A DNA stretch of 64,000 nt from Psilocybe cubensis (lineage: Eukaryota). The notes under the pieces were generated by a model. The model searched no databases. It was not told the DNA's origin and worked only from the letters and a program-made list of their open reading frames with translations. Of this stretch, positions 4,244 to 57,874 are shown piece after piece. Numbering within the stretch: the stretch's first letter is position 1; each line of letters opens with the position of its first letter. Made by a program: the position numbers and the translations under genes. Where the stretch lies: NCBI GenBank assembly GCA_017499595.2, contig CM039001.1:2046001-2110000 (forward strand), given 5' to 3'.

Positions 4244-6158
4244 ATGTTTGCAACTACAGGACTCTTTAGAAACTTGGCATGTCCAGAACGCGATACATGC
4301 ACAAGGCAAAATTGTTTATTCTCGCATTCGTCGGATGTGCCTCCACCGAAGCCTCTCGTCAAACAGGCGACTCCCGTTCCAACAACGATCCGTAGCTCAA
4401 CACCGTCAACGTCAGGAATATCATCCAAATTTTCATCCACTTCCGACCTACATGGCTCCAATCCACACGTTGTTCCAGCCAAACGCCCGGCACTTGCATC
4501 TCCTACAAAGATGATCCCAAATATTGCAGAACCTCCACGCAAACTCCAAAAGGTTGGCGTTGCGAAAATGCCTTTAGTACCTGTGGCCTCAAGTTCAGAG
4601 GTCGGTCTTGGGTATTTATTTCTTGAACTCCTCTAAAGTTACTGCAGTCTGGCATGCCAGTCTTGAGAATCAATGCTGCCCAGTCCTCGGTTGCAATTCC
4701 CGTCAGACAGGTTAGTCCCATGATGTTATCATGTATTTTTGTTGAGGACGGCACTTTAGACGATGTTGAAGACGTTGTACGAACACTTCGTGATACTATA
4801 TAAGTCTATACTTTCGACAAATCCCTCTTTGGCTTCAGAACATGCCCTAAGGCAAGAGGATGAGGTATATAAGAAGTCTACAAAATTGACATATCGTAAT
4901 GCATGTCTTTAATTTAACCTTCGACGAAGCGGGGTAATTGCTAACGATGTACAGGCTGTTATACAATGTGTAGCTGCCTTGAAGAGGAGAGAGGTCCCTA
5001 CCTCCATCTCACACCCATCTGTTGGTACAGAAGGCGATATTGTTTCCCGCGCAGAAGCACGTAAATCTTTAGAAAATCTCCAACTCACAGCCGACCGCCT
5101 CGAACCTTTCATACACACCACTGAGGAACTGAAGAGCTGGGGCTATTTTGTTGATATACCACCGGGGCCCGGAGGCGATCGGCCATCACAGGAAGGAAAG
5201 ATAGCGAAGTGCGAACGGTGTACTCAATATTTTCTTGTTAAACGTGCAGAAGAATCGGAACAATGTACATATCATTGGGGTAAGGCATATACGTCACGCG
5301 CAAATGGTGAGCTTCCCCAATTGCACGCAGTTTAGAGCCTTACCATTCTAACTTGGCTTAAGGGGAGAAGCAACGTACATACAGTTGCTGTTCCAGATCC
5401 GTGGTGGATAGTGAAGGCTGTTCACATGGACCTCACGTATTCTATGAATCGACAGCAGAAGAATTACATTCTCGCCATGCATTTTCATTTCTTCGTTCAC
5501 CAAAATCCGACAGCCCAAAACTTGACGTGGTAGCCCTGGATTGTGAAATGATCTATACCACTGGAGGAATGCGCGTCGCACGAGTGTCCATCGTTGATGG
5601 TTCTGGAAAGGAGATCTTTGACGAGTTTGTACGCATGGACGAAGGTGTAAACGTCATGTAAGTAACTCCTATCTCCCTGCCGTCTTTCTCAGGACCTTAT
5701 CGATTGCAGTGACTACAACACGAGATTCTCGGGGATTACGCCACAGAACTATGCCACAGCTTTACGCACTTTGTCTTCCATACGTGAAGCTTTGGATTTG
5801 TTAATTGATTCTAATACTATTCTTGTTGGCCATGCGCTCGACAACGATTTAAAAACATTGCGAATTATCCACCATAAATGTATCGACACTGCCCTACTCT
5901 TCCCACACAAGGCGGGGGCACCTTATCGCAGGTCACTCAAAGATTTGTGAGTGGTCTAATCAAGGTTTGCTTCTTATCAAACCTGAATTTTATGATCAAT
6001 GCAGGGTACGAGAAAAGCTAGGCAGATCTATCCAGATGGGAGATGCAAATGAAGGGCACTCATCGCTGGAAGATGCTAGTGCAACATTGGATCTTGTGCG
6101 GTGGTACATTCTCAATAAACAAAAATCAGCTGTACACTCTGGAGTTATTACAACATAA
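4244..6158 (+). CDS. REX3: RNA exonuclease 3-like DEDDh exonuclease, multi-exon
   Basis: N-terminal C-x5-C-x4-C-x3-H; CERC..CTYHWGK; VVALDCEMIYT, DYNTRFSGI, LVGHALDNDL, GHSSLEDA. Confidence 0.88.
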
Positions 6159-11127: not shown

Positions 11128-14100
11128 ATGGCGCTCTTGTCCTTACTCCTTCTAAGCACCCCCCATCTCTCATGGCCAACCTCTATTGCTGTTTGGTTCG
11201 TTAGGGTCGTCACATTCTCCCTCATTCTCCGCACGTATCTCATACCATGGCTTTTGGCCCACATGTCCGATCACATTCGTATACGAAGCATCAGTCTTCG
11301 GTCAATTCGTGGCATATACTTTCGAAAGGGTGCACGTACCTGGAGGATAGATCGTGTCAGTTATGTCTTTACGTCAGTACAGGGTTCTCGTCGTCTTGCT
11401 ATCAAAATAGATCGACCAAGCTTGCATATCGAGAAGGAGGATGAAAGCATCATAAAACCAAAACCCAAGAACCACCGACATACTCGCAATCTTACACTTG
11501 CAGACTTCAATCCATCTCCTCTTGCTCAGTATGCCTGGAAAGCTTTATCAGGAATGAAGAACATTCTGGAACCATATCTCCGCCCTCTCATTCGTACCTA
11601 TGTTATTGCGTGCATTCGCATTGCAATCCAATGGCTTCCTAAACTTACTCAGGCGCTCTCTTTTGATGTCCATTCTGTCGAGGTCACATTTGCTGAGGTT
11701 CCTGGGGCCAAACTCGTTGCCGAGGAAATCAATCTGAACGCTGCATTATTACTTACGTATTTAGAGCAACCTCCTCAACCAATAAAGACAAAGGAGTCCA
11801 GAACGCGCCCAGACAACTACCCTGCATATGGGATGGGAATCTTGAAAAGACGTATGGCGGAAAGCTTTCAAAGATCATTGGACAAGGCGTTGGGTGGAAC
11901 TCGCGGTACAGGGACTTTATCCCTCAAGATAAGCAATATTCTTGGAAGCATACCACGCTCGGAACATGGTATAATTAGTCGCCAAATTTGTTCGACAAAT
12001 TACTGATATATGTGTAGATTCCTTGAGTGTTTTGTTCCTCGTTTCCCCCGGTGTTATAGACCTAGGAATATCAGTCAAATTCAATCCCAGAGAAGGAGCT
12101 CTAGAAACCCAGGGTCTCCAGATATCTTTCAAAATGGGCGATTGCTCGGCAAAGGTTGATTTATTGAACCTTTTGCTAGAAAAAGTTCTACCAAAGAAGT
12201 CTCAGCAAGCGACGATTGTCCCATCCTTGTCGTCACCTATATCTGAATACGGTAGCACCGTTCTTGGGACACCTGTGAGTTCAACCGCTCACCGACCAAC
12301 GGCGTTACCTTCGCCGACACCGTCCTTTGCTTCATCCTTTTTTTCGCCTAAGTCTATGTTTTCTCCGTCTGGTCTAATGTCACCAAGACCGTCGCTGTTG
12401 TCTCCAAACTCTGCCCAATATCTCTCTCCCCGATCCCCAAAATCACCATCATCACCATTTTTTCAGGCTATATCAGTCAGTGTTCTTTCAGCATCTCAAT
12501 TACCGAATTGAACTCTTATATTATCTAGGCTTCTATGCGGCCCCGTCGTCGATTCCTTATTCAGTCACCGACAAAGTTGAAAGATTTCAGAGACAAGGTG
12601 GATTTTCTGATTGTCCTCCTGCAGAATTGGTTTTAATACTAGATGTAGTCGAAGTTATTGGTCTTGCACAGCATCCACATATCAATCGCTTCTATAGGTC
12701 TGTCGGTATTAAGTGAAGCAAAATCTGGTCCATATAAAGCCATGGTCAAGGACATTACAGCAAACATATCCATCAGTGACCCTTCGACCAACCTTTTTCA
12801 TAAAAAACATCTCGGATCACGCCGTATAAATGGTGGATATGATCCTGAAGCGTATTCACTCAATCTTAGCCTTCGTCAAATCACCCTTGAACGAGAATCA
12901 AGGCATCATACTGTGTCTCTCGCGAAGGGGGGGCATTTAAAGATACAAGTGCTGGCGTTTCAATGGCCTGCGCCATTCTTATCACCATCGCCATTTCTTG
13001 CGAATGATCCCAATGCCCCTTTTTTAGGGATAGACATCAATCTTTCGGACGCCCACCTATCCGACCGGATCCAAGACCTAAAACGATTGCTAGAATTTGT
13101 GCCTTCACCGCAACAACCTACCCAAACCAATTCTCCTGAAACAACACCCGTTCTATGCACCACATCTCAACCATTCTCTATTCCGCGACTCGTTCTCGAC
13201 GTCAATTGCGGACCAATCACTGGGCGGATTATTTATGACACCGATAACGGTGAGACACACCGAGCCATAGAACTGAGAAACAATGGTTTCGTTGTTTCTC
13301 TCGACACAAACTACAACCATCCTACACCCTCGATTTCACGGACATTTCCAGCGGCCAGTTCAGTGCAGGCTCTGTACTTCAAGGCCGGATTACTGTTACA
13401 TCTAGAACCGACGTTGGTCCGAGTAAGATCGCAACATTTTATGGGTGGTCATACTTCAAAATCGAGCACTTCTGATGAAGACTTCTTAGACGATCCTCCT
13501 TTGCTATCTGTTGGTATAATTGAAGTCAAAGCAGCAGCAAGTGCTATTGCCCAAATAGATGGAGCAACTAACTCGGTCCCCGTCATCGAAAAGGCATCCA
13601 CTATTGTGGAACTTTCTTCTGAACTCGAAACTATATCTATCGAGCTATGGCATCCTATATCAGTAGATGCTGCCCTTCAAGTCCTGTCGCTTATACCCCC
13701 AAGACGGCAATCTCAATCTCAGCGGCTGCAACGGCAAACTCGTTTTTCCAAGCTGCCTACAGGTTTATTTACAAGGCTTGCTATTGGACGTTTTGTCTTG
13801 TTCATCACCGGACCTGATATCAGCCCCGACGACACTATGGATCTATCAAGAGGATTTGCGCTACGGACCTCCCCTTCACTGGAATACTGCTCTTTGCGGC
13901 CGAACCAAGACCATTGGTTTGATAATCTTCGCAGGTCAAAGAAAAGAACTCTACTGCGGCTACCTTCTGAAACTCTAACCGACGCTCTTGTTGCCGCAAA
14001 AACCTTTTCTCTATTTGGAGAAAAATCTGGATTTCTCAAGGCAAAGATGAATAACTTCGTTCTTCGCGCAGCCGTTGCAACAACATATGAGCCAGACGAG

Positions 14101-17100
14101 CCAGCGATCGTGGGGCGTGAGGATTTGCTTGATCATTCACAGGATCTTTTGCGTATAGATCACGCATTGGTTGATGTGTGTTTGTCTTGCAAGTCTTCAT
14201 CAAACCGCCTAGAGCTCATAGACATCTGCGATGTTTCTATTCAAATCCCTCTTATACGTATTGACTTTCAGCTGGTCCATGTTTATAACATCCTTCTTGG
14301 TCTCCAAACAATCCGCATTATAAACCCTCCAGATCCGCCCAGCTTATCCAACCACACGCTACAAAGTGTTGGTGACGAAAGGGCCGATGTTGTTTTATCA
14401 GTACATGGAAATGTAACAGCTATTCAGGCTGTCGTCATTTTACCCACCCAAAAGTTGATTCTACGTATGGATGGGTTCAGTGGCCATTTGAACTCCGAAG
14501 GACCTCCAAGATTAAAATGGACAAGAACTACGGCTTACGTTTTACTTCCATCACAGATCAATCGTTGGGAAGAGGTATCAGAATCCAAGTGGGATGAATT
14601 CGTAACCCTGCAAACTTGGGAAATCTCGTTCACGCAGCTCGCGGGATCTCTGTGCGTGTCTGTTGATGGTGATAGTGCACGTTTACGGATTCCACATGGA
14701 TTTGTATTGGCCGAATTGGTCAAAGATCTGTCTGTGTCCATGAAGGCAATCAAGCATATGGCTCATATGGCGAGTGCCGGGTGTTATTCAAAAATGCCCT
14801 CGCCCTCACCTGAAGGTCCTAAATCCGTTCCTCATCTCACAATACGATTGGCGACATTGTGCTTGGAAGCTCAAGACGACCCTTTTGAAAGCAAGCTCGG
14901 GCTAATATGGCGGACAGGCGCGGAGGCAGTCAAACAACGTATGGACCGTGAACAAGCATTCAATGCCAAAGCTGCAGCCGTGTTACTTGCCGAGCCTGAC
15001 CTGTCCTCAGAAGTTCCTGAGATCGGCGAAGCAGAGAACGAATATCAGTTCGATGCAAAACACTCGGTCTCGATAAAGGAAGCCAGAGCAAGGTTAGACG
15101 AGGTTCACGTCTTAGATTGGATTCTTCGCCTTGATCGTGCTAAGAAAAGACGCATCAAAGAGGCAGACGCGCTGTTGCATGCACTGTTTGGCGCCTCTGT
15201 TTCTTTGGCTCCCGACTCACTATTGGATTTCATGAAACTGCCAGAAATTTCGTCTGATCCTCCACTTTTCCGAGCTGTGTTGCAAAACTTATGCCTTACT
15301 ATCTCCCCGCCCAGCTTTAGCCTTGATTCACTTCCAGATGCTTTGTATAATATGGGCAGTGGTATACCCCGTGATACAAAGTATTCTCTACTTGTTCCTC
15401 TCCATATCCACTTTACCTTGACAACTATGCATATAACGTTAAGAGATTATCCTCTTCCCTTGTTGAGTATCTCTGATCAGTCCTCATCCGCTATTTCATG
15501 GACCTTCGACACGGACTTCATTGCCGCCGAAGAAATGGGAACTGATCGATCCGTAGATTGGGTTCCGTGTCCAATCGTAGAACCTCATCAAGCTCGTCAT
15601 GGAGAAGCGCCATTCTCCATTCTTGTCCCAAAAACCATCATGCCTGTCAAAACATACGCCGCACCGATCATAAAAATTACAACTCGAGATCCTACGGTCT
15701 TCTCCTGGGGAGTGAGTTACGGCCCCGCCATTCAAGATTTAATGCGAATTGTCGACACACTTTCAAGTGCTCCTCGAGATTCCTCGCCTGCTATTGGTTT
15801 TTGGGATAAAGTATGTTCTTTCATATAAGTTTTAGTATCTATGACTGAGGTTTTTATAGATGCGGCTTGTTTTCCATTGGACTGCAAAGGTTACCTTCCG
15901 CGGGGACGTTCGCCTTTACATTAAAGGTAGTTTACACGTCCAGCTGTCTTTATATTAGGTCTGATGTTTTAATCGCTACAGGGAGTCGTGACCCGTATAG
16001 TGTTTTTGATACTGGTGCCGGATTTGTGCTTTGTTGGCAAGGACTTCCTGAAATCAGAATTGGCTACGAAAATCCACAGCAAGAACTGATTCAAGTGACC
16101 AGTGATAAAATGTTGATTGCTATTCCAAAGTCAGTTACTTCATCGAGAATTGCGACTTTGTTTAATAATCACAATATTAGCTTCAACAACGGTCTAAGTC
16201 TTCAAAAAGGTTCATTGAATACGACTAAACCCTTTGAGAAAGTCTGTGCTCGTTTGACGTCAGGCGTTCGGTTCGGCATTGGTTTTGTTCTTGAAAGATC
16301 ATGTGGTCCCGACTGCCCATACGAGAACTGTGCAGGTTCACCGTTTCATCGAAAGTGCCGGTATTTCTCATTCAGACCTCATTTTGATGTCAAACTCGAA
16401 ATGAAACCATCACCCCCATCCTATAAAGTACGTTATAATCTCGTTCTGATGTTATTAACTCACTCTTTCCCATCAGGCTCGTGATGACTCGTACAACGGC
16501 TTTCGGTCTGACTTCATTCATCTGTCTGTATCCCTAGCCAGTTCGATGAAGACGAAAGGTCACCAAATGAATCCTCAAATAAGTAATATTTATCTTACGC
16601 CGAAGGTTTTTGCCCACTTTTGGTCGTGGTGCTCTCTTTTCGAGGGCGCCTCTCTCCCAATTCGACAAGGCAATTATCATCCCTCGAGACATATATCACC
16701 AAAGCTAGGCCGCCATCTTGCTACCTTGAAGTATAAGCTATCACTTTCATCCCTATATTTTTTGCATGGATACATGGACGACGCTAGAGAAAGTAAGTAT
16801 TGTAACCCACTTTGATGTTTGCCAACTGACACATCGATAGCATGGGTTGATGGTGTTACTCCTTGGGTTGGTTTGAAAGGGAAAATAGATGAACTTCAGG
16901 CTGACCTTCACCAACGTGATGAAGAATCGACGACTACTGGACCCATTTCAAACACGACCAGAGTTGATAGAAAAAAACCATTTTATGCTGCAGAAGTAAT
17001 CATGAGAGGCATTGAACTCCGTGCTATGCTCGCGATTTTTTCAGAACCTATGAAGCAGAATACGGATATGACGGCCCCCCCACAAAGAAGTAATTACAGA

Positions 17101-50229: not shown

Positions 50230-50536
50230 GCTTGAGTGTATGGGCTATACATAATTCTACCTTTTTTTTGACCAGAAACGATGCAGAAATGAGAAAAACG
50301 AATGAGTGTTAAAAATTGATCGTTTTGCAACGCCGACAATGCCATCAAAACGAATTAAAGGGCGGCATGTCGGCGTATTGCGTTTCAAGTGCAATCAACA
50401 GGTCGCGTTGCGTTCGGAGTTGAAAATCTCACTGATGATCAGCCATCAAAACGAATTAGTGGTCAAACCGAACGTCTGGTCAATGATAGTAGCTGAGTCG
50501 AGCCTATCTCCAACACTGTTGATGTTTTATTCTCAC

Positions 50537-50913
50537 TGTTGAATTTCTAACCGTGCCTTCGTAATGCACGCCCTTTTCTTGAATGATTATATTTTCTTGT
50601 TGTCTTATTTCTCCGTGATGACCTCAGTTTTAGTCTAGACCGTACGTAGACGGGTGCACGCATGAACAATACGTACACCGAGTAGGTCCGCATGGCTTGG
50701 GCATTTGCCCAGCCATTTTCGTATCACATATACCAGAACAATTTCGTCTCAACTCCCCTCAGTCTATTCTACATTGACTGAGGTGAGTTGACCATCGTAT
50801 TTACTGTTTCCCTTCGTATATTGACTTTGTGTAGCCATTATATTTGTTCAATAGGTACTATACACGAATATAAGTCTATTCTACATTGACTGAGCCATTA
50901 TATTTGTTCAATA
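50537..50913 (+). repeat. 5' LTR (377 bp, TGTTGAA...TTCAATA)
   Basis: Direct repeat of 55761-56137 with one difference seen (T50828 vs C56052). Confidence 0.97.
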
Positions 50914-50925
50914 GGTTATGGGCCC
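50914..50925 (+). other. Primer-binding site GGTTATGGGCCC (internal/half initiator tRNA-Met type)
   Basis: Directly abuts the LTR end; matches the PBS type of Drosophila copia and yeast Ty5. Confidence 0.85.
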
Positions 50926-50980
50926 CGACCTCAGCCTATAATCAACGAGTAGACTCATTTCCCTTCACACCAACTTCACA

Positions 50981-53900
50981 ATGCTCTCTACAACGAAGCT
51001 AGGCGACGATTTCTTGCGCATTCCCAAGCTCGAGGCCACGGGCGCTAATTGGGTGGTCTATCGAGACCGTTTCTTGATTTCCATCGATGCACGCGGACTG
51101 GGAGATCACATCGACGGCACAGCACCTATGCCAGTCGCTCCATCGTTCTCCTCGTCCTCTGCACCGGCTCCCGCTGCCACAGGCTTGTCTACCACTCCTG
51201 CAACGACCCAGCCACCGCCGGCCCCGACAGTGGAACAAACAGCTGCGCTTGAGGAGTACTACAAGAAGTTGAAGGTGTGGAAGTAGGAGGAGGCCGTGGT
51301 GAAGCAGCAGATCGCTGGCACGATCCCGGACAGCCTCTTCTTGAAGATTCGCATGCTACCTACTGCAGAGATGATGTGGGCGGCATTGGGAGCGAATTTC
51401 CAGAACAAATCTCGCATGGTTTCGATTGACCTTCGTCGACGATTGCAAGAGGAGCGGTGTGGAGATAAGGGCGACGTGCGAGCGCATTTTGCGAAGATAC
51501 GCCTCATGCGCGAAGATCTCTCGTCCATGGGCTATCCCCTCGACGACCTCGAATTCTACACTATCCTCATGGGCTCCCTACCCGCTTCCTACGACTCTTT
51601 TGTCTCTGTCATCGATGCATCATACACAACAGTTATTGCTGCGCAGTATGCGAATACGGAAGACCCCCCACCACCGCCATCACCCGAAAACTTTATTTTA
51701 AGCGTCACCGACGAGTACGAGCGCCGGCTCCTTCGTGCGAAGGGCAGTAGCGGCAAGAAGGACAGCGAGAACGTTGCCTTTTACTCCAACGACTCAGAGA
51801 GAGGTCAAAAAGGAGGCTCGCGTCGGGACAACGTCGAATGCTTCAATTGCAAGAAGCGCGGTCACTATAAATCGGAGTGCTGGGCGAAGGGAGGCGGCAG
51901 AGAAGGTCAACGCCCTGGAAAGGGCAAGGGGAAAGGCAAGGGGAAGGGGAAAGCGAAGGAGAATGGGGAGAGCAAGGGCAAGGACAATTCATTGACGGGG
52001 GCTTCTTCGAGCGCTAAACACACGGCTGGAGCTGCCAATGCTGATTCTGACTCGGATGAGGCTTGGATGGCGAATGCTTTCGATGACGATTCGTATTCCG
52101 AGACCTCAGACACACCCTCCTCCTTCAATGACTTCGATTCCGATTTTATTCAGGAATTATTCGATGAAGCTGTTCCCGTAAGCGACACCGAAGCGTCTAC
52201 CGTATTGGACAATAGCAGCGACGAAATGCCAGGTCTCCAAAGCGTTTCTGAATCGTCTGACGACTCTGACGGTGATAGCCCCACGCTTGACTCAGTATCT
52301 GACTCCGACAACAATTTTTCGGATGATGACTTGAGCTCTGAGTCTGATGACGACGAGTTTATTATTCCCCCGCCATCGTTGAATCCTATCTTTGTCCAAG
52401 CGAACGCTCTTCAGGAAGACACAGCGTTTACGAGCAAGACACATGAGGAGCTGACCACTCCAATAGATGTGGAGCTTTATGATTCGGGAGCTACCCGACA
52501 CATGTCTGGTCTTCAACACTGTTTTATCAACTTCGTCGACACTCCAGAGAAGCCCATTTCCGCCGCTGATAACCGAACTTTCACGGCGACTGGCAAGGGA
52601 GACATTTGGATCACTATTCCCAATGGTGAGCAAGAGTCTCGGGTCCTCTTGAAGGACGTCCTCTATGCGCCGTCGATGCGCGTCACTCTCGTATCCATCA
52701 GTCGTATTGCTCTTGCCGGATCAACCTTGATTTTTCACGGTGAATTTTGCAAGATTTACGATCGCCATCGTCGACCGATTGGAAGGGTGTCTGTAAAGGG
52801 AGGACTGTATCGGGTCTTTACGCCACGCTCAGTTGAGCCAGAGGTTGAGACCGCGACCGCCGCGAAGGTGGAGGAGGTAATCTCACTTGATAAACTTCAT
52901 CGTCGACTGGGACATGTTTCGCACGAGCGAGCGAAGCGTTTGGTGGATAAGGGACTCGTCACTGGTATTCTATTAGACCCAGAAAGTGTCTCAACAATTT
53001 GCGAGTCCTGCGAGTGGGCGAAAGGCGAGCGTAGAGCTATCCGACGCGAACGCGAACGAGAACGCACCAAGGCTGTTGGCGACGAGATTTATTCGGATCT
53101 GTGGGGTCCAGCGCCAGTCGAAACGATTAATTGCAAGAAGTACTACATTAGCTTCACGGACGATTACAGCCGCTATTCTCAGCTCTATTTTTTGCGCAAA
53201 AAGAGCGAGGCGTTCGATGCGTATCGGTCATACGAGGCATGGCTAAAAACGCAAAAGGATATCCAAATCAAATCGCTTCGTACGGATCGTGGAGGCGAAT
53301 ACCTCAACGATGCGTTTACTGCCCATCTTGCACTCGCTGGAACCGAACGGCACCTCACAACCCACGATACACCCGAGTATAATGGCGTTTCGGAGCGCCT
53401 AAACCGCACCATTATTGCTAAAGTCCGTGCCATGCTTCATGAGAGCGGACTGCCCGATTTTTTGTGGGCTGAAGCAGCCCGCCACTCTGTGCATCTCAAG
53501 AACTGTTCCTGGACGCGCAGTCTTGGAAACACGACCCCCTTCGAAATATTTCATGGCAAGAAGCCAAACCTTGCGAATTTACACCCCTGGGGATGCAGAG
53601 TGCGAGTTTACGACGACAACAACAATAAACTTGCAGCGCGATCGAAAATCGGCCGCTGGGTTGGTTTTGACGATGAGAGCTTTGCCCATCGCATATATTG
53701 GACCGAGAAGCATTCAATTACTGTTGAACGAAACGTTAAGTTCAATTTTGATGAAGAAATATTCGTCGAGGCTGCACCACTCGAGGGGGAGCGTAAACCA
53801 TTTGTCGTGTAGACTCCGCCCGACGAACCACTTGCTTCCAACGATTCTCAACGCCCCAAGGTCGAGGAAGTCGACGAGGATGACGAGGACAAGCCAGAGC

Positions 53901-55753
53901 CCAGAGGTCCTTCGGATCATACTGAAAATCGATTCCAGAATGAAGAACCCGAGCCAGAAGGTCCACGACGAAGCTTACGCATTCGCAAAGCTTCCTCGTA
54001 TGTGGAACGATTGAGAAGTGGTGTGGGAGTGCTCAGCGCAAGACGCAGCGATGGTGTACTGCCTGTAGGCATACAAGAAGCGCCAGAGCCTTCGGAGACG
54101 GGTGGAGTTGCGGATGGCGAGGAGGATGCTTGGGAATTGGTCGAGGCGGCGGAGTATGCAATGGCAGCGGTTATGGAGGGAGCAGAAGGTTTAACACCTA
54201 CATTTGAGGAGGCGAGGAAGCGTGCAGACTGGCCTAAATGGGAGATCGCAATCAAGGAGGAGCTCGATTCGTTGAAGCGAAACGGCACTTACGAGCTCGT
54301 ACAGCGACCCAAGGATGCCAACGTCACCAAATGTCGATGGGTTTTGCGTATCAAGAAGAATGCAGCCGGCGAAATCGAAAAATACAAGGCACGTCTAGTC
54401 GCTAAAGGTTTCACTCAAATTCATGGCGTAGATTATTACGAGACGTATGCACCTGTTGCTCGTTTCGCATCTTTTCGACTCCTTCTTGCTCTTGCTGCGC
54501 GGAACGACTGGATTGCAGATATCATTGACTTCGATTCAGCGTACCTTAACAGCAAATTGGGTCCAAACGAGAAGGTATTTCTTGAACAACCACCCGAGTT
54601 CGCCGTCCGCAACAGTCGTGACTGGGTTTGGCGCTTAAACAAGACGTTATACGGCTTGAAACAGGGCGCTAAAAACTGGTACGACGCACTTTGTAAAGCT
54701 CTCGCTGATTTGGGGTTCGTAAGAACGGATGCAGACCATGGAGTCTTCGTAAAGAAGATTGGCTCCGATATCATTATCCTTGCAGTACACGTCGACGATT
54801 GCCTGCTTGTTGGGAGCTCTAGGAAGCAGATTAACGAATTCAAGAAGCGAATGAATCGTATCTACAAGCTCACCGACTTAGGCGCCGTGAACTGGCTCTT
54901 GGGGATCAAGATCACTCGAGATTTCGTCAACCACACCATTTCCCTATCCCAGGACGCATACATCAACTCTATCATTGCGCGATTCAATTTTAACGACTTG
55001 AAACCGTCGTCTATCCCTATGGATCACACAGTTACGCTCTCAAAATCGCAATCCCCCACGAAGATCGCAGACATCATCAAGATGCAGCAAATTCCGTACC
55101 GTGAGGCGGTCGGATCCCTGATGTATGCAGCGATGGGCACTCGCCCTGATATCGCATTTGCAGTGTCCACAGTGGCACAATTCTCCGAGAACCCAGGTTG
55201 GGCTCATTGGGAGGCCGTGAAGCGAATCTTTCGCTATTTATTGGGCACTCGCTCATTGCAGTTGACGTACGGCGGCGAGAAGCGAGGAGTGGAAGGGTTC
55301 GTTGATGCTGACGGAGCATCCCAGGAGCACAGGCGTGCAATTTCCGGGTATGTTTTCATGGTTGACGGGGGAGCCGTTAGCTGGTCATCGAAGAAACAAG
55401 AGCTCGTTACACTGTCAACCACCGAGGCGGAATATGTCGCACAAACTCACGCTGCGAAGGAAGCCATTTGGCTTCGTGAACTCATCACTCAACTTTTCGG
55501 ACCTCTCGACGGTCCAACCATTTTATTTTCTGACAGCAAATCGGCCATTGCACTCGCACAAGACGGACACTATCATGCACGCACAAAACATATCGATATT
55601 CGCTACCATTTTATCCGCTACGTCATAGAGAAGGGCACGATCAAGTTGATCTACTGCCCCACAAATGACATGACGGCCGACATTCTCACCAAGGCGCTTC
55701 CTAGCGTGAAGGCCAAACATTTCGCTACCGCCCTCGGACTCAGCACGGTTTGA
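50981..55753 (+). pseudogene. Copia gag-pol polyprotein, a single frame interrupted by two in-frame TAG stops
   Basis: ORFs 50981, 51296 and 54002 share one frame; Zn knuckle CFNCKKRGHYKSEC, protease YDSGATRHM, HRRLGH..CESC, integrase SDLWGP/TDRGGEY/SERLNRT, RT KARLVAKG..HVDD, RNase H ADILTKAL; stops at 51284-51286 and 53810-53812. Confidence 0.92.
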
Positions 55754-55760
55754 GGGGGAG
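55752..55760 (+). other. Polypurine tract GAGGGGGAG
   Basis: Immediately precedes the 3' LTR and overlaps the pol stop codon. Confidence 0.9.
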
Positions 55761-56137
55761 TGTTGAATTTCTAACCGTGCCTTCGTAATGCACGCCCTTT
55801 TCTTGAATGATTATATTTTCTTGTTGTCTTATTTCTCCGTGATGACCTCAGTTTTAGTCTAGACCGTACGTAGACGGGTGCACGCATGAACAATACGTAC
55901 ACCGAGTAGGTCCGCATGGCTTGGGCATTTGCCCAGCCATTTTCGTATCACATATACCAGAACAATTTCGTCTCAACTCCCCTCAGTCTATTCTACATTG
56001 ACTGAGGTGAGTTGACCATCGTATTTACTGTTTCCCTTCGTATATTGACTTCGTGTAGCCATTATATTTGTTCAATAGGTACTATACACGAATATAAGTC
56101 TATTCTACATTGACTGAGCCATTATATTTGTTCAATA
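55761..56137 (+). repeat. 3' LTR (377 bp)
   Basis: Direct repeat of 50537-50913, followed by TSD CTCAC. Confidence 0.97.
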
Positions 56138-56344
56138 CTCACATCTATCAAACTCTTTCATCTTTTATCTGTGGTTCTGAAGAGCTTTTTAATTCGTCTC
56201 ATCCACCGCAAGATATCAAAAATTAAGTCATCAATGCGCAATGGATATACAATAAAATTGGAAGCATCAGGATGTTCAGAGAAAAAAGACCTGATAGTTG
56301 AATAGAAAAAATAGAAATTCCTTGATTATATAGTGGTAGATGTT

Positions 56345-57528: not shown

Positions 57529-57874
57529 CACGCCGGACAAAAATGCTGACCAGTTAGCCTGGGTGTTGTCCTGACCAGTGACGTGACTAGTACGGTGACC
57601 GATTACATAGTGTCACAAATATGTTGTCACGCTAGTTCATTATTAGTAGGCTCGACAGTAAATGGCAAATTACTTGATTGTCTTGCGTTGGAACTCAGTG
57701 CGTAGTAAGAAGAAATACTAAACAATCAAGTAATATGTTATTTACTGTTGAGCCTACTAATAATGAATTAGCGTGACAATGTATGTGTGACACTATGTAG
57801 TTGGTCACGGTACTAGTCACGTCACTGGTCAGGACAACACCCAGGCTAACTGGTCAGCATTTTTGTCCGGCGTG
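57529..57874. mobile_element. 346-bp foldback / MITE-like element with ~153-bp inverted arms, possibly CMC-EnSpm-like
   Basis: Arms 57529-57681 and 57722-57874; outer 65 bp perfectly complementary; termini CACG...CGTG; flanked by TAT on both sides. Confidence 0.85.

Follow-up and report, generated by a model that had tools for sequence, protein, structure and literature searches.

Each long terminal repeat (LTR) of a Ty1/copia element in the window, the 64,000-nt stretch of Psilocybe cubensis DNA analysed here, contains two short segments, A and B, twice: first separated by an intron-like stretch (A1 and B1) and then fused to each other (A2B2). In our judgement, this is rather probably a hemivirus-like Ty1/copia element with leader introns of its own in the LTR, close to the promoter, and with a pre-spliced landing pad that is rewritten from the spliced leader. 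For the broader proposal, we put the chances only slightly above even: a large and old fungal copia clade would replicate via a spliced leader, with R being assembled by the removal of two mini-introns from the 5' LTR transcript, a strong-stop DNA of 35-50 nt, and a landing pad that is rewritten in every cycle.

The features of the window copy are listed in Table 1. It is a young Ty1/copia element with LTRs that are identical at 376 of 377 positions and a 5-bp target duplication. An LTR pair, target-site duplication, primer binding site (PBS) and polypurine tract were all found, which corresponds to the structure of Ty1/copia elements, and the Pfam matches follow one another in the Ty1/copia domain order (Retrotran_gag_2, Pol_BBD, gag_pre-integrs, rve, RVT_2). 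Translation of the gag-pol frame revealed in-frame stops at 51284-51286 and 53810-53812. The sole difference between the two LTRs is a T/C exchange at position 50828, within the 52-nt stretch that separates A1 from B1.

Table 1. Features of the window element
Feature	Position	Strand	Remarks
5' target-site duplication CTCAC	50532-50536	+	same 5 nt at 56138-56142
5' LTR, 377 nt	50537-50913	+	376/377 identity with 55761-56137; independent contig of run X1 across it
TATA-like motif	50727-50732	+	34 nt 5' of A1; CCTC abuts A1
A1, putative exon 1 and RNA 5' end, 22 nt, 3' end CTGAG	50761-50782	+	exact repeat of 50873-50894
Intron 1 (i1), 52 nt, GTGAGT...TTGAC...TAG	50783-50834	+	missing in the fused copy
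B1, putative second mini-exon, 20 nt, pyrimidine-rich, 3' end TAG	50835-50854	+	exact repeat of 50895-50914
Spacer, start of putative intron 2 (GTACTA...), A/T-rich, poly(A)-signal-like motifs	50855-50872	+	
A2, downstream A copy fused to B2	50873-50894	+	exact repeat of A1
B2, downstream B copy	50895-50914	+	LTR end comprises 50895-50913; G 50914 belongs to the primer binding site
Putative intron 2 (spacer, A2 and B2), 60 nt	50855-50914	+	acceptor AG completed by G 50914
Primer binding site, half-tRNA type (anticodon stem-loop, presumably initiator Met)	50914-50926	+	motif also in 7 related loci
gag-protease-integrase-RT-RNase H, single reading frame	50981-55753	+	translation; Pfam matches
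Polypurine tract	55752-55760	+	abuts 3' LTR; motif also precedes the LTR in most related loci
3' LTR	55761-56137	+	modules as in the 5' LTR, offset 5224
3' LTR modules	A1 55985-56006, i1 56007-56058, B1 56059-56078, spacer 56079-56096, A2 56097-56118, B2 56119-56137	+	
3' target-site duplication CTCAC	56138-56142	+	matches the 5' copy at 50532-50536

All coordinates and strings given in the earlier note were confirmed, including its statement that A, B and positions 50915-50925, when joined, correspond exactly to genomic 50873-50925. A single placement had to be amended. The note had counted position 50914 as the last base of B2 at the LTR end, and the exact repeat of B does indeed span 50895-50914. 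However, because the target duplication CTCAC occupies 50532-50536 and 56138-56142, the LTR ends at 50913, and G 50914 is therefore the first base of the PBS. B2 of the 3' LTR ends at 56137 and lacks the terminal G. Within the PBS motif lies a sequence complementary to the CAU anticodon, and seven related loci (L001, L002, L003, L010, L017, L021, and L026) carry this motif 3' of their 5' LTR. We take it to pair with initiator tRNA-Met and, presumably, to be nearly identical to the corresponding motif of Drosophila copia. Neither the window nor 18 loci yielded an initiator tRNA-Met gene for alignment with the PBS.

We compared the window element with 38 related copia loci from metagenome contigs, using a k-mer approach for detection of the layout. 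Nineteen of these 39 elements have the layout, six contain an intron-less single A+B, one is cut off, and 13 are unreadable. The layout consists of A1, a GT..AG intron of 44-56 nt, B1, a short spacer, and the fused A2B2. It thus occurs in 19 of 26 readable elements (25 loci and the window), and these 19 represent at least 13 sequence families. Layout-bearing families fall on both sides of the deepest split in the reverse transcriptase (RT) tree, and the RT of layout elements is 37-78% identical to that of the window element. No relatives were found among viral contigs. The earlier note had proposed, as a test set beforehand, that related families should retain the layout, that the downstream copy should track the spliced exons, and that the boundaries should coincide with GT/AG; all of this was observed. 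Its overall interpretation was upheld with respect to intron 1 and this comparison, but required modification on two points: the LTR of some families runs on for 11 to about 62 nt past B2, and the module can be lost.

In the window copy itself, a 378-nt contig of run X1 covers positions 50537-50914 with four substitutions, none of which lies in A or B. Raw DNA reads of run X11 revealed no joints in the LTR and a single minority 1-base deletion at 50736 (4/39 reads). Processed derivatives of the window family were detected neither in the X11 DNA reads nor in the X1 contigs at a joint share of at least 3%, a neutral result that is not evidence of absence. Two further runs, presumed to be RNA, were uninformative on expression: X13 yielded nothing, and X14 yielded two contigs that cover only 50462-50491, outside the LTR.

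As a control for chance, a script seeking a split repeat followed by a fused copy was applied to the window and the loci, altogether 210,835 nt. On the forward strands it returned 18 hits, of which 14 had GT..AG ends. The reverse complements gave three hits, none with GT..AG, and the remainder of the window gave none. That this one copy arose by a chance duplication and deletion, or is a product of misassembly, has in our view a negligible probability. Nothing but a two-base (AG) ambiguity at the deletion boundary speaks for such an origin, whereas the layout is present in both LTRs, is matched by the independent contig and the raw reads, and recurs with different sequences at 18 other loci, and neither the reverse-strand nor the rest-of-window control gave any GT..AG layout.

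Three further origins were considered and rejected. A tandem duplication, in which the spacer would be the diverged duplicate of the region upstream of A1, does not fit, as A and B are identical and the spacer lacks clear similarity to that region. An origin from a 2-LTR-circle junction is out because the LTR start does not follow B1. Finally, reverse transcription of RNA spliced at intron 1 only would be expected to leave either A+B in triplicate or a duplicated LTR free of introns, and the 25 loci and the window showed neither form.

The two copies were also compared within and between elements. Between families, the identity of A+B averages 61% (0.61; range 0.50-0.79; 78 pairs), whereas A2B2 and the spliced A1+B1 of the same element match at 752 of 785 positions (95.8%; 19 LTR copies from 16 loci). 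Among the 33 mismatches within elements, 31 are transitions and 30 are CpG-compatible. The window element and L001, the two youngest elements, have no mismatch at all between A2B2 and A1+B1. In one family, L017 differs from L006/L008 by two substitutions in B, each of which is found in both B1 and B2. Since the mismatches within elements are almost exclusively attributable to CpG decay (30/33), they point to frequent rather than rare rewriting. There are exceptions: L020 and L027 have two A1/A2 differences in common, and L026 carries a G>T exchange at the last base of A2 in both LTRs. Thus, rewriting is not visibly perfect. Diverged parental LTRs, or transfer from one co-packaged RNA to another, could account for these differences, but this is an added assumption.

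These data also bear on the idea of a frozen relic, i.e., a single ancient, aberrant reverse transcription of a partly spliced RNA, followed by passive inheritance with no present role. Template-switch duplications are generally known to be common in retroelement LTRs, and the intron-less LTRs indicate that the module can be lost. A relic, however, predicts that A2B2 and A1+B1 diverge at the rate seen between families, in conflict with the 95.8% within versus 61% between, and it does not account for the conservation of splice signals, spacing, and promoter motifs in at least 13 families. According to the RT tree, moreover, the metagenome loci are not near-identical copies of one family. On these comparisons, we regard a relic as largely refuted and very improbable.

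The base directly 5' of A2 varied in all three within-family comparisons. Base 50872 is A in the window, T in X11 (28/28 reads), and C in X1; L017 contains an extra C just before A2, which is the only indel in 188 columns; and L020 and L027 differ by C/T at the base just before A2. This variability would fit untidy ends of the strong-stop DNA. Non-templated addition by the RT of an LTR retrotransposon is mentioned in PMC3185545.

A GT start is found in 18 of the 19 counterparts of intron 1 and an AG end in all 19. They measure 44-56 nt and contain a branch-like motif, while their interior has diverged to an identity of 0.59 between families. Intron 1 is precisely absent from the fused A2B2, which equals A1+B1 in each family apart from the mostly CpG-type mismatches. 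By a heuristic comparison, most candidate host introns in the window measure 46-58 nt, in agreement with the claim of the earlier note that the size and signals of intron 1 resemble those of host introns in this stretch. The identification of 50783-50834 as a spliceosomal intron is thus strongly supported at the sequence level. The boundary of the deletion corresponding to intron 1 has a two-base placement ambiguity (AG).

A TATA-like motif was detected at -30 to -35 of A1 in 12 of 16 LTRs and in none (0/16) at the same distance from A2. Similarly, CCTC precedes A1 in 13 of 16 LTRs and A2 in none of the 16. The left edge of the repeat lies at AGT in every family. Indirectly, these motifs support a transcription start at A1 rather than at A2.

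In a classical replication mode, the RNA would start at A2 or remain wholly unspliced, and A2B2 would represent R-U5. The upstream module would serve only a longer, spliced mRNA, the second stretch would not be an intron, and A2B2 would be realigned occasionally by reverse-transcribed spliced RNA. An RNA started at A2 and a doubly spliced RNA would have identical sequences, the A1/A2 differences of L020/L027 and L026 have outlived at least one insertion, and LTRs with an intron-less single A+B function as lineages, all of which would accord with this mode. It is hard to reconcile, however, with the lack of a TATA-like/CCTC context at A2 (0/16 versus 12/16 and 13/16 for A1) and with the CpG decay behind 30 of the 33 within-element mismatches, which argues for frequent, not rare, rewriting.

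The second stretch bears on the same question. B1 is followed by GT in 18 of the 19 loci, also in families where B2 is not. B ends with YAG, and the length of putative intron 2 is constant at 53-62 nt while A ranges from 22 to 36 nt. The spacer is shorter where A is longer (Spearman -0.92; 13 families, phylogeny not corrected for). GT..AG ends and a host-like length of putative intron 2 are accordingly conserved across families. Its donor, by contrast, deviates from what we take to be the consensus, as none of 12 donor types has G at +5. The sole conserved branch-like motif is CTGAG, which is off the presumed usual fungal consensus. The weak donor in all families speaks for the classical mode, but that mode leaves unexplained why GT follows B1 (18/19), why B ends with YAG, and why the length stays within 53-62 nt. 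Taken together, we consider classical replication unlikely, although it is the rival to be taken most seriously. Judging by the conserved ends and spacing, the second stretch is probably spliced, with a consistently weak 5' site.

Replication via a spliced leader, which we prefer, would proceed in four steps. Transcription would start at A1 (50761), about 34 nt 3' of the TATA-like motif. Intron 1 (50783-50834) would then be removed, and the weaker second intron (50855-50914) probably too; the doubly spliced leader would run from A+B into the primer site and have a sequence identical to the genomic one that starts at 50873. In window-type families, the acceptor AG of intron 2 would be completed by the first G of the PBS, and hence in the 5' LTR only. 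In the third step, half-tRNA-primed minus-strand strong-stop DNA would copy the 42-nt spliced leader; half-tRNA priming as such has been described (PMC1181622, PMC5371799). This DNA would finally pair with the A2B2 copy that has stayed unspliced close to the 3' terminus of the RNA. Extension from A2B2 via the spacer, B1, intron 1, and A1 into U3 would allow both new LTRs to regain the intron-bearing copy, which would act as U3. The A/T-rich spacer probably bears the poly(A) signal used in the 3' LTR. As A2B2 would be overwritten in each cycle by spliced A1+B1, A1/B1 would be the master and A2B2 the slave. For the model to work, the 3' LTR copy of intron 1 would have to escape splicing in the same RNA, and no sequence feature accounts for that.

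Retroelements copy from processed RNA, and introns in the replicating transcript are therefore normally lost. The classic intron test for retrotransposition relies on this loss. The LTR architecture described here appears to solve the problem, with spliced RNA as the template and the intron regenerated from the 3' copy. As a likely benefit, a retroelement otherwise free of introns would keep 5'-UTR introns in a host whose mRNA accumulation is boosted by them. For basidiomycetes, a dependence of mRNA accumulation on introns is reported in PMC3744415, PMC8379801, and PMC4935854. Among the look-alikes of one host gene in the window, Basidiomycota was the most frequent taxon, which is a weak hint.

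The window element shares the gene order gag-PR-IN-RT-RH with hemivirus-type Ty1/copia elements (Drosophila copia, yeast Ty5, Osser, 1731), and likewise the 5-bp target duplication, the LTR start TGTTG, and a PBS abutting the LTR. None of these has been described as having a spliceosomal intron in the LTR or a pre-spliced duplicate of leader exons, and the word intron is absent from a survey of fungal copia diversity (PMC5445492). Split-intron (and double-copy) retroviral vectors differ in being engineered: only the donor sits in the 3' LTR, with the acceptor 3' of the packaging signal. They have neither a pre-spliced landing pad nor rewriting of a downstream copy and are built for one round of transfer. 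In DIRS1-type elements, an internal complementary region consists of pre-joined terminal sequences and serves as a template or landing site for regenerating complete ends. The principle of a pre-joined copy is the same, but these tyrosine-recombinase elements have inverted or split repeats, no splicing, and unrelated enzymes. Spliceosomal introns also survive retrotransposition in Penelope-like elements and in plant Ogre elements, the latter carrying theirs in the coding region; this is ascribed to unspliced RNA or another mode of reverse transcription, not to a spliced duplicate in an LTR. The spliced RNAs of HTLV-1 are subgenomic and not the template for replication, and the HTLV-1 LTR lacks a duplicate of the exon junction. 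For the HTLV-1 R region in the hybrid EF1a/HTLV-1 LTR promoter, a preprint describes donor and acceptor sites that undergo splicing in cells, with increased expression (bioRxiv 10.1101/2023.01.28.526022). Our search of openly accessible articles found no published description of an LTR that combines an intron with a pre-spliced copy of the exons.

If the model is true, a natural LTR retroelement would for the first time have been shown to preserve spliceosomal introns by design, as a natural counterpart of the split-intron vectors. The U3/R/U5 boundaries would have to be redefined, and assembly of R by splicing would be a new replication step. The element would represent a transposon adaptation to hosts whose introns promote mRNA accumulation, and its LTRs would provide compact natural promoter-plus-intron modules for expression in mushroom-forming fungi. 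LTR annotation would change with regard to U3/R/U5, the dating of solo LTRs, and CpG decay. Moreover, the master-slave copies and the junction hotspot would give a sequence read-out of strand transfer in genomes that lack a transposition assay.

Intron-less U3-A+B LTRs with the promoter context of A1 (L010, L036) are nested among intron-bearing relatives. They are the by-products that the model predicts. Such intron-less lineages persist, and the module is therefore dispensable. A minor feature concerns the A segment: in minimum-free-energy folds, its leading bases pair with ACT before the final GAG in 16 of 19 A2 copies, as in a putative 5'-terminal hairpin, with z-scores of -4.6 to +0.6, mostly insignificant.

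The feature lies in the LTR of a Ty1/copia element, where the earlier note had seen two short segments, A and B, separated by an intron-like stretch and followed by a second such stretch carrying a fused A+B copy. On re-checking, the strings and coordinates of A, B and both stretches proved exact, and A plus B plus 50915-50925 is indeed identical to genomic 50873-50925. The A1-B1 interval measures 52 nt, with GTGAGT at its start and TAG at its end, and the 60 nt after B1 include A joined straight to B. This arrangement occupies the 3' part of the LTR and recurs in full 5224 nt downstream, in the 3' LTR; the sole difference between the LTRs, at 50828, falls within the 52-nt stretch. CTCAC forms the target duplication, and a polypurine tract adjoins the 3' LTR. 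Relative to the earlier note, the LTR end is corrected to 50913. The last G of B2 as originally drawn therefore already belongs to the primer site, as its first base, and B2 of the 3' LTR lacks it. The element fits Ty1/copia and, judged by its primer site, would fit the half-tRNA-priming hemivirus group, which comprises copia, Ty5, Osser and 1731 (PMC1181622, PMC5371799). As for a host pairing partner, no initiator tRNA-Met gene was present in the window or in 18 related loci.

Features of the window element, and related loci sorted by LTR form
Feature	Position or loci	Strand	Remark
5' LTR	50537-50913		376/377 identical to 3' LTR
A1 and A2, 22 nt	50761-50782 and 50873-50894	+	exact repeat
Stretch 1	50783-50834
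B1 and B2, 20 nt	50835-50854 and 50895-50914	+	exact repeat
Second stretch	50855-50914		spacer, A2 and B2
Primer binding site	starts 50914
gag-protease-integrase-RT-RNase H	50981-55753		single frame, two in-frame stops
3' LTR	55761-56137
Layout bearers	window, L001, L003, L006, L007, L008, L009, L013, L017, L020, L021, L022, L026, L027, L028, L030, L032, L034, L037
Contig breaks off right after A1 and GTGAGC	L025
Single A+B, intron-less LTR	L002, L004, L010, L023, L029, L036		six loci
Uninformative	L005, L011, L012, L014, L015, L016, L018, L019, L024, L031, L033, L035, L038		13 loci, LTR part missing or unclear
Intron-less clade in RT tree	L002/L023/L029/L004 + L018		support 100
Intron-less position in RT tree	L010 with L012
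Intron-less position in RT tree	L036 next to L020/L027		support 95
LTR extends past B2	L013/L028; L021; L020/L027		11 nt; 52 nt; ~62 nt

A 378-nt contig from X1, a DNA sequencing run, covers the window LTR as independent DNA with four substitutions, none of them in A or B. Raw reads of a second DNA run, X11, contained no joints within the window LTR. The stop of the window copy at 51284-86 is not present in the X1 and X11 copies. Over 50950-51120 (leader and gag start), C>T and G>A changes are numerous in about one third to two thirds of the X11 reads, at 12-13 per read; they point to a second copy in that strain, heavily altered by transitions and showing RIP-like or methylation-type decay.

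Relatives were collected by scanning metagenome contigs with the window RT-RNase H protein, which yielded 38 loci (35-78% identity), and the region between the pol end and the primer site was inspected in all of them. Nineteen elements, including that of the window, share the layout, in which 44-56 nt with GT..AG ends separate A1 from B1, and a spacer of 10-25 nt separates B1 from fused A2B2. When a script searched for split repeats with a fused copy downstream, the forward strands of window and loci gave 18 layouts, of which 14 had GT..AG. The reverse complements gave 3, all lacking GT..AG, and the remainder of the window gave 0. The window layout was confirmed to lie far beyond chance. In L009:2244-2600 and L026:4857-5220 the primer site directly follows the post-pol LTR, in L009 with a second gag start thereafter; these are either tandem elements with one common LTR or an assembly collapse.

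The duplication boundaries had been predicted to coincide with GT/AG sites in relatives, and this was borne out for intron 1, with GT in 18/19 loci and AG in 19/19. The exception, L021, has AT, and further G>A changes are present in that copy. Some 10-20 nt upstream of the intron end there is a branch-like motif, and the intron interior has diverged. Candidate host introns in the window, from a crude, heuristic ORF-joining GT..AG scan made without gene models, are mostly 46-58 nt long with similar donors and branch motifs. That stretch 1 is an intron is well supported.

Between families, mean pairwise identity is 0.63 for A, 0.58 for B and 0.59 for intron 1, and 0.61 (range 0.50-0.79) for A+B (78 pairs, 13 families). 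Within elements, fused A2B2 differs from spliced A1+B1 at only 33 of 785 positions (19 LTR copies, 16 loci); 31 of these mismatches are transitions and 30 lie at CpG-compatible sites. The two youngest elements, the window element and L001, have none. Such a pattern fits copies that were identical when inserted and then underwent methylation-type decay. Two adjacent B positions separate L017 from L006 and L008 of the same family, in B1 and B2 alike. Thus, as the earlier note had anticipated, the layout is kept and A2B2 tracks the spliced exons across at least 13 diverged families. A single ancient accident, passively inherited, could not produce low between-family as against high within-element A+B identity. 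On this sequence evidence, some process repeatedly copies spliced A1+B1 into the A2B2 position, and a cDNA origin of A2B2 is well supported.

In a quick IQ-TREE RT tree (37 rows), the layout was found on either side of the deepest split, and the intron-less form held at least three separate positions nested among intron-bearing relatives, so that the layout would most simply be ancestral and several times lost. L010 and L036 retain the TATA/CCTC context of A1. In the L002/L004/L023/L029 clade, an A/T motif resembling the spacer stands immediately before A.

A replicating RNA initiated at A2 would be indistinguishable in sequence from a doubly spliced RNA. A TATA-like motif occurs at -30 to -35 of A1 in 12/16 LTRs, and CCTC immediately 5' of A1 in 13/16; at the same distance from A2 the TATA-like motif was found in 0/16, and the bases before A2 are variable. 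The left edge of the A repeat is AGT in every family. The promoter motifs and the AGT edge are as expected if A1 were the RNA 5' end and the A2 start the strong-stop DNA run-off. Most minimum-free-energy folds of A contain a small hairpin (16/19 A2 copies) that pairs the first bases, AGT, with the ACT preceding the terminal GAG; its inner stems are family-specific and strong in L013 and L030, and its z-scores are mostly insignificant. It may be an R-region hairpin.

The base directly 5' of A2 varied in all three within-family comparisons. Among about five variable LTR sites, only position 50872 is tri-allelic: the window has A, 28/28 X11 reads have T, and the X1 contig has C. At this point L017 carries an additional C, the sole indel in 188 aligned columns, and L020 and L027 differ by C/T. 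Ty1 shows untemplated base addition at the U3/R border. Similarly, LTR-retrotransposon RTs can add untemplated bases to the nascent DNA end, as described for Tf1 (PMC3185545). The hotspot fits strand transfer with its junction at the left border of A2.

The second stretch starts with GT in 18/19 loci (AT in L034). GT follows B1 also in families without GT after B2, so it did not arise through the duplication. B, rich in pyrimidines, ends in YAG in all, and A terminates in CTGAG in all, 15-22 nt upstream of the AG of B. The stretch totals 53-62 nt despite A lengths of 22-36 nt, because the spacer shortens as A lengthens (Spearman -0.92; 13 families, phylogeny not corrected for). G is absent from +5 of every donor, and CTGAG does not conform to the usual branch consensus; the second stretch, if an intron, would be a weak one. 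The spacer is A/T-rich, contains motifs resembling AATAAA or TATATA, and may provide the 3' LTR with its poly(A) signal. LTRs of window-type families terminate in TA, and the missing G of the acceptor AG comes from the primer site; hence only the 5' LTR has a full acceptor. Where the LTR extends past B2, the arithmetic of the earlier note holds because the acceptor is the B2 end.

In the scheme proposed there, transcription would begin at A1, and splicing of both stretches from the 5' leader would leave A+B and the primer site. Half-tRNA-primed strong-stop DNA of ~42 nt would copy this leader, anneal to unspliced A2B2 at an RNA 3' end and be extended through spacer, B1, intron 1, A1 and U3, so that A1/B1 would act as master and A2B2 as slave. 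Intron 1 of the 3' LTR would have to remain unspliced in the template. Among the schemes considered, only this one would both keep the layout and rewrite A2B2. Its second intron and strand transfer are putative, as is a benefit. By reasoning, template RNA spliced at intron 1 alone would yield either A+B in triplicate or a duplicated LTR without intron; neither form was seen. Wholly unspliced RNA would replicate faithfully but never homogenise A2B2. If strong-stop DNA landed on A1, or on a 3' copy already spliced, a U3-A+B LTR would result, exactly the intron-less form of L010 and L036, whose LTRs are as expected for products of spliced-RNA retrotransposition. In L020/L027 and L026, A1/A2 differences were already there at insertion, and for these the scheme needs diverged parental LTRs or co-packaged-RNA transfer. 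Both L026 LTRs (141-311, 5046-5220) have T for G at the last A2 base, the exact exon-exon junction, and A1 keeps G; this may be an inherited reverse-transcription error.

The internal complementary region of DIRS1 and the intron-retaining Penelope or Ogre elements are parallels. The nearest functional analogue is the man-made split-intron retroviral vector: its donor lies in the 3' LTR, and reverse transcription thereby equips the integrated copy with a leader intron (PMC3182074). An HTLV-1 LTR segment containing a spliced intron serves in expression vectors (bioRxiv 10.1101/2023.01.28.526022), and intron-dependent expression is documented in basidiomycetes (PMC3744415, PMC8379801, PMC4935854), to which the host may belong. 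Full-text searches of the openly accessible literature yielded no description of an LTR with an intron and a pre-spliced exon copy, and introns go unmentioned in a survey of fungal copia diversity (PMC5445492). We regard the element as an LTR retrotransposon whose LTR architecture is new and linked to replication.

Just 5' of the element, 50448-50491 shows a several-fold depth excess with many loose ends in both DNA runs and is the sole part matched by contigs of X14, a run presumed to be RNA; a different dispersed repeat has probably left a fragment here. An inverted repeat at 57529-57874 (153-nt arms, 93% complementary, 40 nt between them) may be a foldback or MITE-like element. At 12649-15828, a 1059-aa open frame has its nearest Atlas clusters in the Hobbit/BLTP lipid-transfer family, with Basidiomycota as their most frequent recorded taxon.
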